Assembly (NCBI RefSeq): GCF_022846255.1
Contig: NZ_AP025682.1
From: Escherichia coli
GTDB lineage: Bacteria > Pseudomonadota > Gammaproteobacteria > Enterobacterales > Enterobacteriaceae
Length of the DNA: 64,000 nucleotides
Strand: one strand, 5' to 3'
Of the stretch, positions 50,324-55,253 are shown one piece after another (position 1 is the first letter of the stretch; every line of letters begins with the position of its first letter). Under the pieces are notes generated by a model. That model was not told the origin of the DNA and ran no database searches. It saw nothing but the letters and a program-made list of their open reading frames with translations. Both the position numbers and the translations under genes were made by a program.

Positions 50324-51211
50324 ATGGATGCAAAACAAACGCGGCAAGGCGTATTACTCGCTCTTGCCGCTTATTTTATTTGGGGTATTGCGCCAGCGTA
50401 CTTCAAGCTGATTTACTACGTGCCCGCCGATGAGATCCTGACGCATCGCGTGATCTGGTCGTTTTTCTTTATGGTGGTGCTGATGAGCATCTGCCGCCAG
50501 TGGTCCTATTTAAAAACGCTGATTCAGACGCCACAGAAAATTTTTATGCTGGCAGTCTCTGCCGTGCTGATTGGTGGCAACTGGCTACTGTTTATCTGGG
50601 CGGTGAACAATCACCATATGCTGGAAGCGAGTCTTGGTTACTTTATTAACCCGCTGGTGAACATTGTGCTGGGGATGATTTTCCTCGGCGAGCGATTCCG
50701 CCGGATGCAATGGCTGGCGGTGATTCTGGCGATATGTGGAGTGCTGGTTCAGTTGTGGACTTTTGGTTCACTGCCGATCATCGCGCTGGGGCTGGCGTTT
50801 AGTTTTGCTTTCTATGGCCTGGTGCGCAAGAAGATTGCTGTTGAAGCGCAAACCGGCATGTTAATCGAAACTATGTGGTTGCTGCCCGTGGCGGCGATTT
50901 ACCTGTTTGCTATTGCCGACAGCTCAACCAGTCATATGGGGCAAAACCCGATGTCGCTGAATTTACTGCTGATCGCCGCCGGTATTGTCACTACCGTACC
51001 GCTGTTGTGTTTTACTGCGGCTGCGACACGCCTGCGTCTCTCAACGTTAGGCTTTTTTCAGTACATTGGCCCGACGCTGATGTTCCTGCTGGCTGTGACG
51101 TTTTATGGTGAAAAACCGGGTGCCGATAAGATGGTGACCTTCGCCTTTATTTGGGTGGCGCTGGCAATTTTTGTGATGGATGCGATTTATACGCAGCGTA
51201 GAAAAAGTTAA
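50324..51211 (+). CDS. rarD: DMT-superfamily transporter RarD
   Basis: 295-aa 10-TM ORF. Confidence 0.92.
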   Translation: MDAKQTRQGVLLALAAYFIWGIAPAYFKLIYYVPADEILTHRVIWSFFFMVVLMSICRQWSYLKTLIQTPQKIFMLAVSAVLIGGNWLLFIWAVNNHHMLEASLGYFINPLVNIVLGMIFLGERFRRMQWLAVILAICGVLVQLWTFGSLPIIALGLAFSFAFYGLVRKKIAVEAQTGMLIETMWLLPVAAIYLFAIADSSTSHMGQNPMSLNLLLIAAGIVTTVPLLCFTAAATRLRLSTLGFFQYIGPTLMFLLAVTFYGEKPGADKMVTFAFIWVALAIFVMDAIYTQRRKS

Positions 51212-51257
51212 GCATTAACATGGGTAGGCCGTTTAAAGAGCCTACCCACTGACTTAT

Positions 51258-51575
51258 TTATCTTTTTTTGAAAAAAATTAAGATAAGAAAAAGAACAATA
51301 TTTGTTACAGGAAATACCCCCAAAGCTCCCCAGTACTTACTCCATCCTAGAGACATCGTATATCTACCAAGGATTTGACAAAATCCAAAACTTAACCCTA
51401 TACCTATACTTCTTAAATTTAATGTCGTAGTCAGGCTTAAAATAAATAGAACAAGGATGGTAATAGCCCACCACAATAACCACGCCTTAACAAAATCAGA
51501 TTTTTTGCTGTAAGGTTCTTTACCCAAGAACAACTGCCAAAAGTTACTATTTTCCATATAGAATACATTCACCAA
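51258..51575 (-). CDS. hypothetical small hydrophobic protein in AT-rich DNA (possibly spurious)
   Basis: 105-aa ORF; composition K/N/I/F/L-rich as expected from the AT-rich sequence; no recognisable family. Confidence 0.3.
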   Translation of the reverse strand: MVNVFYMENSNFWQLFLGKEPYSKKSDFVKAWLLWWAITILVLFILSLTTTLNLRSIGIGLSFGFCQILGRYTMSLGWSKYWGALGVFPVTNIVLFLILIFFKKR

Positions 51576-51772
51576 AAATATTATTCATAGAAACAAATAT
51601 TATTTAATTATATTTAATTAAATATAGTTCCCCTCAATAAAAACTTATACACTCTAAATTACTACTGTATAGTTATCAATACAAAGGCTGTCATATTGCA
51701 TGGATATAACAAGCTATATGTTCTAAATAATGTATATACACTTAAACCAATCATATACAAAACAATATAAAA

Positions 51773-52159
51773 ATGTTTAAATCATCTATTAGAAATATAT
51801 TATACCCATCCAGGCTTAAGCATTTATCACGTTTGCAGTTTATAATCTACACATTAACATCATGGACAATATTAATAACTTTGAATGATATCAACCTGGC
51901 TTTGAGTTTCATTCTGGTCATCACTAATACGTATGTGAATATCAATATCGGAGCTAAAAGAATAAGAGATACTGGATGTAAGGCAATCTATTTTGTATTG
52001 ATTTCATTGGGTTTGACACTTTTTTCTATTATCTCGGCAGTAATTGAAGGGGTGAGATGTGATTCATTAAGCGTCCAACTCAACGTAGCATGGATATTAT
52101 TCACAACAATTATGTTATCTGCGATTCCCTCGGCTAAAATGTCGCTGTCAGCACACTAA
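51773..52159 (+). CDS. small inner membrane protein, YigF-like by position
   Basis: 128-aa ORF with two or three hydrophobic segments, convergent with corA as yigF is in K-12; sequence identity not verified. Confidence 0.55.
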   Translation: MFKSSIRNILYPSRLKHLSRLQFIIYTLTSWTILITLNDINLALSFILVITNTYVNINIGAKRIRDTGCKAIYFVLISLGLTLFSIISAVIEGVRCDSLSVQLNVAWILFTTIMLSAIPSAKMSLSAH

Positions 52160-52183
52160 CTTACTCACAGCGACATCGTAAAG

Positions 52184-53134
52184 TTACAACCAGTTCTTCC
52201 GCTTAAAGTAGAGATACGGTGCCAGGCCCGCGAGGATCATAAAGATAATCGCGCCTGGGTAGCCGAAGCTCCACTTCAGTTCTGGCATAAACTCAAAGTT
52301 CATCCCGTAGCTGGAAGCAACCAGCGTCGGCGGCAGGAACACGACGGATACCACCGAGAAGATTTTGATGATGCGGTTCTGCTCGATATTGATAAAGCCC
52401 ATCGCCGCCTGCATCAGGAAGTTCACCTTCTGGAACAGGGATTCGTTATGCGGCAGCAGGGATTCGATATCTCGCAGGATTTCACGCGCCTGCTCCAGTT
52501 GCCCACCCGGTAAACGCGCCTTGCGTACCAGGAAGTTGAGCGCACGCTGGGTATCCATCAGACACAGGCGAACTTTCCAGCCGATATCTTCCAGTTCCGC
52601 CAGCGTAGAGAGCGCTTCGTCATACTCATCGCCCTGATGCCCTTCCATAATCACCCGGCTCAACTGCTCCAGGTCGCTATAGATATTTTCAATTTCATCT
52701 GCCAGCTGTTCGATTTTGGTTTCGAACAGATCCAACAGCAGCTCGTAGGCGTTACCGTCTACCATCGACTGGCTACGGGCACGCATACGATACAGACGAA
52801 AAGCGGGCAGTTCACGCTCACGCAAAGTAAACAGACGACCATCACGGATGGTAAATGCCACAGTGGAGTTACCGGCGTGATCTTCCGCATCTTCAAAGAA
52901 GAAGAAGGAGTGAATATGCAGGCCGTCATCGTCTTCAAAGAAACGTGCCGATGCTTCGATGTCTTCCAGTTCCGGGCGGGTTGCCAGGCTCTGGCCAAGT
53001 TCAGATTGTACGCGCAGTCGCTCGTCGTCGTCCGGTTCGACAAGATCAATCCATACTGCATTTACAAGGGGTTGTGACTCTTCGACTTCCAGCCGGGTCA
53101 GTCGGTTATTTTCCAGTTGAAATGCGCTCAGCAT
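52184..53134 (-). CDS. corA: magnesium/cobalt transport protein CorA
   Basis: 316-aa product from [16 protein letters not shown]; C-terminal YGMNF motif present. Confidence 0.95.
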
Positions 53135-53503
53135 GACCGGGACTCCCAATGCTTAAAATATCGGACAGTTCGGTGGGCACACAGAAACAAATTGGGTTTC
53201 AGACCATTAAACAGCCTGACTCAGCGCGACGGGAAAAATTGAGGTCGCTGACAACCGCTAAGGCTATCAGCAAAAAGGGATAGCCTTAGGAGTTGATCCT
53301 GGATGACAGGATAGTGAGCCAGTATCTACTGGGTGTGTCCAAGGCGAATGTCCTCTTAGAGTGATCGTGCGCGCATGTTACGCCAGCAAAATTTTGCCGT
53401 CAACACGCAACAGAACACCACAGAACAATAGTTGAACTTCGCGCTTTTTGGTACTCGTCAAGGTCGCTAACAGGATAAAAAAATCCCACATCCAGGACCT
53501 ATA

Positions 53504-54268
53504 ATGGCGCATCGGCTACTCATTGGTAAAGGAATGATCACCTTGAATCTCAAACGGATTTTTCTCGCCCTCACCTTACTTCCCTTGTTTGCTGTTGCCG
53601 CTGATGATTGCGCACTCTCAGATCCGACGCTGACCGTACAGGCGTATACCGTTAATACTCAAACAGAGCGGGTGAAAATGTACTGGCAAAAAGCCAATGG
53701 CGAAGCGTGGGGAACGTTACATGCGCTGCTGGCGGATATGAATAGTCAGGGTCAGGTGCAGATGGCGATGAACGGCGGCATCTATGATGAAAGCTATGCG
53801 CCGCTCGGTTTGTACATCGAAAACGGTCAGCAGAAGGTGGCGTTAAATCTCGCTTCAGGTGAAGGGAATTTCTTTATTCGTCCTGGCGGCGTGTTTTATG
53901 TCGCGGGAGATAAAGTCGGCATCGTTCGTCTGGATGCCTTTAAAACCAGTAAAGAGATTCAGTTTGCGGTGCAGTCAGGGCCATTGTTGATGGAAAACGG
54001 TGTAATTAATCCGCGTATTCATCCCAACGTCGCCTCACGTAAAATTCGTAACGGTGTTGGGATTAATAAACATGGGAACGCCGTGTTTTTGTTGAGCCAG
54101 CAGGCGACAAATTTTTATGATTTTGCCTGTTATGCCAAAGCAAAACTGAACGTTGAGCAGCTGCTTTATCTTGATGGCACAATTTCACATATGTATATGA
54201 AAGGCGAGGCAATCCCGTGGCAACGCTATCCTTTTGTCACCATGATTTCCGTCGAGCAGAAAGGTTAA
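53504..54268 (+). CDS. yigE: DUF2233-domain periplasmic protein YigE
   Basis: 254-aa ORF with signal peptide. Confidence 0.85.
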   Translation: MAHRLLIGKGMITLNLKRIFLALTLLPLFAVAADDCALSDPTLTVQAYTVNTQTERVKMYWQKANGEAWGTLHALLADMNSQGQVQMAMNGGIYDESYAPLGLYIENGQQKVALNLASGEGNFFIRPGGVFYVAGDKVGIVRLDAFKTSKEIQFAVQSGPLLMENGVINPRIHPNVASRKIRNGVGINKHGNAVFLLSQQATNFYDFACYAKAKLNVEQLLYLDGTISHMYMKGEAIPWQRYPFVTMISVEQKG

Positions 54269-54350: not shown

Positions 54351-55253
54351 ATGAAAAAAACGCTCGCAACATTATTTTTATTAACCTGTCTGGGGTCATC
54401 ATCCGCTTATGCGGATAACGCTTTGATTTTACAAACGGATTTTAGCCTGAAAGATGGTGCCGTCTCGGCGATGAAAGGGGTCGCTTTCGGCGTTGACCAT
54501 AATCTTAAAATATTTGATTTAACACACGAAATTCCACCGTATAACATCTGGGAAGGCGCTTACCGCCTGTATCAGACTGCCAATTACTGGCCGCAAGGTT
54601 CGGTGTTTGTTAGCGTGGTCGATCCTGGTGTTGGTACAGAGCGTAAATCGGTAGTGCTGAAAACCAAAAATGGTCAGTACTTCGTTTCACCAGATAACGG
54701 TACGCTCACGTTGGTGGCGGAATCGCTGGGTATTGAGAGCGTCCGGCAAATCGATGAAAAAACCAACCGTCTGAAAGGTTCCGAAAAGTCATATACCTTC
54801 CACGGTCGTGACGTGTATGCCTACACCGGTGCACGTCTGGCTTCCGGGGCGATCACGTTCGAGCAGGTGGGGCCAGAGCTTCCTGCAAAAGTTGTCGAAC
54901 TTTCTTATCAGAAAGCCAAAGCAACAAAAGGTGAAGTGAAGGGCAATATCCCGATTCTCGATATTCAGTACGGCAACGTCTGGAGCAATATCAGCGACGA
55001 GTTGCTGAATCAGGCAGGAATCAAACTCAACGACACGTTGTGTGTGACCATTTCCGAAGGTTCCCAGCAAAAATACGCAGGGAAAATGCCGTATGTCGCA
55101 AGCTTCGGCGATGTGCCGGAAGGCCAGCCGATGGTGTATCTGAACAGCTTATTGAATGTTTCCGTGGCGCTGAATATGGATAATTTCGCGCAGAAACATC
55201 AGGTTGCGTCTGGTGCTGACTGGAATATTGATGTGAAGAAGTGCGCTAAGTAA
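54351..55253 (+). CDS. DUF62-family SAM hydroxide adenosyltransferase-like protein with N-terminal signal peptide
   Basis: 300 aa; motifs TDFS, VVDPGVGTER, SPDNG, TFHGRDVY, QYGNV parallel the archaeal/bacterial SAM hydrolase (fluorinase/chlorinase) fold; N-terminus MKKTLATLFLLTCLGSSSAYA is a Sec signal peptide. Confidence 0.8.
   Translation: MKKTLATLFLLTCLGSSSAYADNALILQTDFSLKDGAVSAMKGVAFGVDHNLKIFDLTHEIPPYNIWEGAYRLYQTANYWPQGSVFVSVVDPGVGTERKSVVLKTKNGQYFVSPDNGTLTLVAESLGIESVRQIDEKTNRLKGSEKSYTFHGRDVYAYTGARLASGAITFEQVGPELPAKVVELSYQKAKATKGEVKGNIPILDIQYGNVWSNISDELLNQAGIKLNDTLCVTISEGSQQKYAGKMPYVASFGDVPEGQPMVYLNSLLNVSVALNMDNFAQKHQVASGADWNIDVKKCAK

Follow-up and report, generated by a model that had tools for sequence, protein, structure and literature searches.

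Introduction

The question raised by this locus is what occupies the AT-rich stretch of about 1 kb between rarD and corA in an Escherichia coli chromosome window of 64 kb (the whole stretch of DNA analysed, hereafter the window). An earlier note, made from the letters of the DNA, had described the stretch as AT-rich, with two small hydrophobic open reading frames in an arrangement different from that of strain K-12, and had considered horizontal acquisition or a decayed gene as its origin. Here we present a set of features for the stretch, together with its distribution in complete genomes and its relation to known systems. It is very probably an allelic cassette of about 980 bp in a variable rarD-corA slot, swapped as a unit and carrying two genes for small inner-membrane proteins, designated orf99 and orf128. 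The cassette is an ordinary accessory islet and not a decayed gene.

Locus organization and composition

The gene order in the window is recQ-pldA-yigI-rarD-cassette-corA-ysgD-yigE, with a full-length corA and without a duplicated corA fragment. The coordinates of the features are summarized in Table 1. The nearest complete genome over positions 51000-52400 is that of strain AR_0077, with 99.1% identity.

Table 1. Features of the rarD-corA slot in the window
Feature	Position	Strand	Basis
rarD, core gene, left anchor for the proposed homologous exchange	50324..51211	+	ORF list, AR_0077 annotation
Whole replaceable cassette	51204..52183	.	Flank comparison, K-12-type alignments, GC 0.317
GC-rich hairpin between convergent rarD and orf99	51219..51251	.	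Folding energy, inverted repeat I1
orf99, 99 aa, short N-terminal helix and three predicted transmembrane helices	51258..51557	-	ORF list, AR_0077 annotation
Shared 5' region of divergent orf99 and orf128	51558..51772	.	21.4% GC; 215 bp
Short direct repeat TATTTAATTA, two copies, overlapping palindrome	51601..51620	.	TRF: period 10, 2 copies, 100% match
Conserved block in the divergent intergenic region	51636..51688	.	Two overlapping opposed sigma-70-like matches
Sigma-70-like match TATACA-16-TATAGT, towards orf128	51646->51673	+	Promoter scan
Sigma-70-like match TTGATA-17-TAGAGT, towards orf99	51679->51651	-	Promoter scan
orf128, 128 aa, about four predicted helices	51773..52159	+	ORF list, BLASTP, HMM
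Hairpin between convergent orf128 and corA	52139..52176	.	orf128 stop codon in loop; inverted repeat I4
corA, core gene, right anchor for the proposed homologous exchange	52184..53134	-	ORF list, AR_0077 annotation

The GC content of positions 51212-52183 is 31.7%, compared with 51.9% for the whole window (z = -5.9 against all 972-nt tiles; mean 0.519, sd 0.034), and tiles below 0.42 GC are confined to this stretch, the sole such trough in the 64 kb. The GC tiling proposed in the earlier note bears out its account of the composition, and the two small hydrophobic reading frames that it listed (105 aa on the minus strand, 128 aa on the plus strand) are both present as described. The minus-strand frame spans 51258-51575 and encodes 105 aa from a TTG, or 99 aa from the ATG at 51557, which is the start used by PGAP. 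With a GC content far under the background and a presence that varies between strains, the stretch shows two features of a xenogeneic islet.

A second strain-variable insertion lies about 2 kb from the cassette in the window. It is a 300-aa gene (54351-55253, plus strand) between yigE and uvrD; the AR_0077 and Nissle annotations assign its product to the SAM hydrolase/SAM-dependent halogenase (S-adenosyl-L-methionine hydroxide adenosyltransferase) family. K-12 is devoid of this gene, and yigE is followed directly by uvrD.

Breakpoints and cassette replacement

Side-by-side comparison of the flanks in the window, K-12, Nissle, O157, Salmonella and Pseudocitrobacter places the left breakpoint within the final rarD codons (RRKS and stop in the window, RRTSK and stop in K-12) and the right one immediately before the corA stop codon, at which homology to K-12 resumes exactly. 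With 51000-52400 as the query, K-12-type genomes match positions 1-~212 and 1185-1401 only; the alignment to the K-12 yigG-yigF region thus takes in only the flanking rarD and corA, at about 30% query coverage. The K-12 genes yigG and yigF are encoded on the same strand as rarD, and the mismatch with the K-12 arrangement that had been suspected is real. Strains differ at this locus by replacement of the whole cassette, with breakpoints at the ends of rarD and corA.

The RarD C-terminus (window 51200-51211) co-varies with the cassette type: it reads ...QRRKS in the window and O157, ...QRRTSK in K-12 and Nissle, ...QRRKR in Pseudocitrobacter and ...QRRKH in Salmonella, which points to a recombination breakpoint inside rarD.

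The cassettes of the window and of AR_0077 are 99% identical, whereas 26 of 948 sites differ between the corA genes of the two. Because of the breakpoints, this mosaic divergence and the corA scar described below, we infer that the cassettes are exchanged whole, with rarD and corA as the probable sites of homologous recombination.

A remnant of a mobile element between rarD and corA, such as an insertion sequence, an integrative element or a prophage fragment, would likewise be AT-rich and strain-variable, and IS1 is found inside the cassette in a few genomes. The stretch carries, however, no integrase or transposase, no flanking direct or inverted repeats beyond chance 10-11-mers and no PHROGs match at E < 0.01. 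Its boundaries are the ends of core genes and not a target-site duplication, and the cassette was never found elsewhere in the chromosome or on plasmids. A mobile-element origin is very unlikely, and the allelic cassette exchanged through its core neighbours is preferred. From the horizontal acquisition considered in the earlier note there remains an accessory, strain-variable segment of atypical composition, which fits lateral exchange. A scan of GTDB species representatives delivered four loci only, three of them in E. coli-like contigs in Clostridium, Alistipes and Collinsella MAGs, and therefore indicated neither a wider taxonomic range nor a candidate for a low-GC donor.

The loci in the Clostridium, Alistipes and Collinsella MAGs (L017, L018 and L020) carry orf128 at 92-93% identity and are most likely mis-binned E. 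coli contigs.

Distribution in complete E. coli genomes

Among 5,426 complete E. coli genomes, the slot holds yigG-yigF in about 2,962 (~55%) and the orf99-orf128 cassette in about 1,429 (~26%), the latter always chromosomal and in single copy. A further module consisting of DUF3289 and DUF943 genes is present in about 2,627 of the genomes (~48%). This module can accompany either type of first-slot cassette, on the side towards corA, and is preceded by a duplicate of ~141-147 nt of the corA 3' end; it follows orf99-orf128 in O157 and yigG-yigF in strain D2, while in Nissle it is alone in the slot, with a short piece of the yigG 5' end left beside it. Directly downstream of the orf99-orf128 cassette it was found in about 1,406 of the about 1,429 carriers (~98%), with the corA 3' scar in between. 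The arrangement of the window, in which the cassette directly abuts a full-length corA, is limited to 23 genomes, 11 with a window-like allele (95.6-99.1% identity) and 12 with an O157-like one (93.3-93.4%).

The corA 3'-end duplicate (L002 3685-3831; L023 4625-4771) is identical to the resident corA at 134 of 141 positions. The diverged duplicate in about 1,400 E. coli genomes is the scar of module joining; the window is free of it. The DUF3289 (YPO3983 family) and DUF943 genes (L002 4018-5354; L004 4623-5965) have a GC content of 0.33 and are AT-rich like the cassette. IS1 copies were observed inside both cassette types in several genomes (L021 994-1691; H35, H40, H91-H95), in isolate AF14 within the orf99-orf128 intergenic region. 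A literature search on rarD, corA and a hotspot delivered only unrelated papers.

According to a published study, the DUF3289/DUF943 module encodes a colicin-M-like effector of type VI secretion (T6SS) together with the cognate immunity protein (PMC11148199). The products of orf99 and orf128 might belong functionally to this module, for example as immunity proteins, orphan or accessory, that counter effectors acting in the periplasm or on the membrane, in which case the slot would be a hotspot of immunity genes kept polymorphic by competition between strains. The close association of about 1,406 of about 1,429 carriers is in line with such a role, and so is the form of the proteins, small polytopic membrane proteins being a common form of immunity protein. 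Alternative alleles also persist in Escherichia and Salmonella (PMC3579871). On the other hand, the window, Salmonella and Pseudocitrobacter have the cassette without DUF3289/DUF943, and the yigG-yigF pair combines with the same module in the same way, so that the linkage of cassette and module looks positional. Neither orf99 nor orf128 shows similarity to DUF943, PADLOC found no matches on the cassette, and both DUF805 and DUF2628, the Pfam families discussed below, are absent from the supplementary tables of the T6SS effector-immunity paper (PMC11148199). We regard this assignment as unlikely. Equally doubtful is the broader proposal that the slot represents a long-lived balanced polymorphism common to Escherichia and Salmonella, with yigG-yigF and orf99-orf128 as interchangeable envelope-protection or immunity determinants tied to the colicin-M-like T6SS effector module; if true, it would provide the first function for the DUF805/YigG group. 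The preferred reading is still that of an exchangeable cassette which shares its slot with the module.

The genes orf99 and orf128

By its sequence, orf128 is a remote homologue of YigG, a relation overlooked in the earlier note. The BLASTP alignment with K-12 YigG covers 84 aa at 31% identity (E = 2e-5) and has its centre at the invariant NINIGAKRIRDTG of orf128 and INMNCQRLRDSG of YigG, and the Pseudocitrobacter orthologue of orf128 also matches YigG (E = 1e-4). On the NCBIfam YigG equivalog NF008474, orf128 scores 28.5 bits (E = 1.4e-6) and K-12 YigG 255.6 bits, with a cut-off of 217 bits. The invariant motif of orf128 is NTY(I/V)(N/H)INIGAKRIRD(T/S)GC. Like yigG it shares the strand of rarD and lies between rarD and corA, but it is the gene next to corA, a place held by yigF in K-12. 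The AF2 model of orf128 is of low confidence (pLDDT 56).

PGAP annotation of orf128 is inconsistent, the gene being in most cases omitted or shortened: PGAP does not call it in AR_0077 and O157 7386WT, and in SMN013SH2 it predicts an N-terminally truncated protein of 92 aa (L022 1181-1459; L001; L002); despite this 92-aa call, the first 36 residues of orf128 are conserved across genera. In many draft assemblies a contig ends inside the cassette, which gives rise to 'partial' proteins.

The product of orf99 is labelled by PGAP as a hypothetical protein (WP_001330510.1). Its AF2 model (pLDDT 73) contains helices at residues 6-11, 19-43, 49-69 and 74-96, and a Foldseek search of the model against PDB found nothing at E <= 0.001. 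No Pfam or NCBIfam family match was obtained for orf99. BLASTP against YigF gave E = 4.4 and no similarity to YigG was detected either; whereas YigF matches DUF2628 at E = 3.7e-10, orf99 does not. As orf99 is without similarity to YigF and YigG, the cassette is not simply a diverged yigG-yigF pair. An exhaustive profile search recovered distant relatives of orf99 with 30-33% identity (P0056, P0058 and P0059); distant relatives from metagenomes are located on short contigs with uninformative neighbours.

An apparent orf99 homologue with 48% identity (P0040, L006) was discarded, as it came from an E. coli assembly full of frameshifts. In this assembly (GCA_002230675.1) corA, rarD, yigI and pldA are all broken into small ORFs, an artefact of assembly quality.

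Conservation and selection

Neither reading frame is interrupted in the window, AR_0077, O157, three Escherichia-type contigs of greater divergence (L007, L008 and L009), Salmonella and Pseudocitrobacter, and alleles with intact frames differ by up to 16% in DNA. The cassette genes have dN/dS values of 0.14-0.25 with a significant synonymous excess, compared with 0.01-0.07 for the flanking rarD and corA. Pairwise comparison of orf128 alleles gave dN/dS of 0.14-0.17 (Fisher p 2e-6 to 1e-10); between the window and L007 there are 35 synonymous changes at 89 sites and 25 non-synonymous changes at 295 sites (Fisher p = 1e-10). For orf99 the value against the L007 allele is ~0.21 (Fisher p = 0.004). 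Judged from these substitution patterns, orf99 and orf128 are real genes under purifying selection.

Pseudocitrobacter corydidari has two divergent genes, of 98 aa and 127 aa, in its own corA-rarD interval, which is likewise AT-rich, and their products share 61% and 46% identity with orf99 and orf128, respectively. Salmonella has the same divergent pair at rarD-corA, with a 98-aa counterpart of orf99 and orf128 homologues of 48% identity. According to its authors, a study of Salmonella found yigG in strain LT2 and not in serovar Enteritidis (PMC3579871). One of the orf128 homologues comes from Salmonella Enteritidis, and together with yigG in LT2 this indicates that both cassette types co-exist in both genera.

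The stretch could alternatively be a decayed or rearranged remnant of yigG-yigF, with the reading frames arising by chance in AT-rich DNA. It does occupy the same slot, its proteins find no Pfam or NCBIfam match above threshold, and orf128 is often skipped by PGAP. Against a remnant, the stretch has no nucleotide similarity to K-12 yigG-yigF, keeps its reading frames open across such divergent alleles, shows a strong synonymous excess and encodes proteins conserved in two other genera. The decayed gene considered in the earlier note is therefore contradicted by intact frames in every allele examined, by the selection on them and by conservation of the pair across genera; decay is hardly credible, and the stretch is best read as an intact two-gene cassette.

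Hairpins, control region and silencing

A hairpin is present at either end of the gene pair. The one between rarD and orf99 has a predicted energy of -17.3 kcal/mol (z = -4.1) on the plus strand and of -19.5 kcal/mol (z = -4.6) on the minus strand. On the plus strand it is followed by a 10-nt spacer (ACTGACTTAT) and then by a T-rich stretch, which makes it terminator-like for rarD; it is absent from the output of a simple terminator scan. Salmonella and Pseudocitrobacter have a hairpin at the equivalent position with different stem sequences. The hairpin between orf128 and corA (-22.6 kcal/mol, z = -5.0, minus strand) is terminator-like for corA, as it is followed by UUUU on the minus strand, and K-12 and Nissle have other hairpins at this position. 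The differences among K-12, Nissle, Salmonella and Pseudocitrobacter suggest that each cassette supplies the 3' ends of its core neighbours, and the hairpins of the present cassette would end the convergent rarD and corA transcripts.

The region between the two genes is the most divergent part in the allele alignments. From this shared control region of 215 bp and 21% GC, orf99 and orf128 would be expressed divergently. Within its conserved block, TACTGTA and GTTATCAA are conserved across four alleles, and the two opposed sigma-70-like matches located there may be the promoters; sigma-70-like sites show no enrichment in the region against shuffled sequence (7 found, 5.4 +/- 2.6 expected).

The direct repeat noticed earlier at about 51600-51630 is present as two copies of TATTTAATTA, in a palindromic arrangement TATTTAATTA/TAATTAAATA (inverted repeats I3 and I6). 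The allele alignments show no conservation of its first copy in O157 or L007. A two-copy 10-mer in DNA of 21% GC whose first copy is unconserved is probably a by-product of composition, and the repeat was rejected as a functional element.

The K-12 yigF-yigG region figures among the published promoter islands (PMC3661553), is silent and lies under a small extended protein occupancy domain (EPOD; 10.1101/2020.01.29.924811), and contains an H-NS-repressed intragenic promoter (PMC7229825). These properties of the K-12 counterpart make silencing of the present cassette by H-NS plausible, and by analogy nucleoid proteins of the H-NS type are likely to keep it largely silent in laboratory culture. 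A result that speaks against this is that the 10-nt high-affinity H-NS motif TCGATAAATT had no match within 2 mismatches in 51204-52183.

The sole functional lead for the YigG-like protein group is the report of attachment and chlorine phenotypes for Salmonella yigG mutants (PMC3579871). By analogy with this reported role of yigG, orf99 and orf128 may have an accessory function in the envelope or at the cell surface.

Significance

The results correct the annotation of a common E. coli locus, as orf128 is missing or truncated in RefSeq for more than 1,000 genomes, including O157:H7. They also show that yigG-yigF is just one among several modules that can stand in for each other at a small recombination hotspot, where a T6SS effector-immunity pair is found as well. 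Pangenome and GWAS work would be helped by this modular view of the rarD-corA slot, and the cassettes offer a natural series of alleles for asking what YigG/DUF805-like membrane proteins do.

Comparison with known systems

The DUF3289/DUF943 module shares with the cassette the rarD-corA hotspot and a low GC content (0.33), and adjoins it in ~98% of the E. coli carriers. It differs in that it is absent from the window, where orf128 is followed by the full-length corA, and in that its proteins show no similarity to orf99 or orf128. Rfam delivered only chance-level matches on 51000-53600.

H-NS-silenced promoter islands and EPODs resemble the cassette in their extreme AT content, their accessory nature and their many promoter-like hexamers; as a point of difference, the promoter-like matches of the cassette do not exceed the shuffled expectation.

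Proteins of the Pfam family DUF805 (PF05656), such as YhaH and YhaI, are of similar size (~100-130 aa), with a basic N-terminus followed by transmembrane helices and an R-(R/I/Y)-x-(D/S)-x-G loop before the last helix, and they also occur as adjacent paralogous pairs. In the cassette proteins a basic segment at the N-terminus is followed by two helices, an R-x-x-D/S-x-G loop and one more helix. Where DUF805 has its RRLHD signature, orf128 has KRIRDTG and orf99 has GRYTMSLG, and the scores remain under the Pfam gathering cut-off of 25.7: 13.9 bits (E = 0.078) for orf128, 17.3 bits (E = 0.0069) for K-12 YigG and, among the distant orf99 relatives, 15.2 bits for P0056 and 22.8 bits (E = 1.3e-4) over nearly the full length for P0059. 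Alignment with hhalign places RY..SLGWSKYWGALGVFP of orf99 on RRLHDTDRSAWWALLFLIP of YhaH/YhaI; the E-values, obtained from very shallow profiles, are 0.022 (orf99 family) and 0.28 (orf128 family), and the profile-profile E-values of the cassette proteins against DUF805 are weak overall (0.02-0.3). As far as these comparisons go, orf99 and orf128 resemble DUF805 in layout, below the family thresholds.

The closest counterpart is the yigG-yigF pair (b3818-b3817) of K-12 and Salmonella LT2. It lies in the same rarD-corA slot with similar length (911 bp versus 972 bp for the cassette) and GC content (0.35 versus 0.32), and consists of two genes of ~100-130 aa for small inner-membrane proteins, with the YigG homologue on the same strand. 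The two cassettes have no DNA similarity, and the genes are in tandem in K-12 and divergent here; the YigG-like gene adjoins corA, where K-12 has yigF, orf99 is unrelated by sequence to YigF with its DUF2628 domain, and orf128 is with 28.5 bits far from the equivalog cut-off of 217. The cassette represents no new kind of system; it extends the YigG-like group of small membrane proteins by a new member that is poorly annotated.
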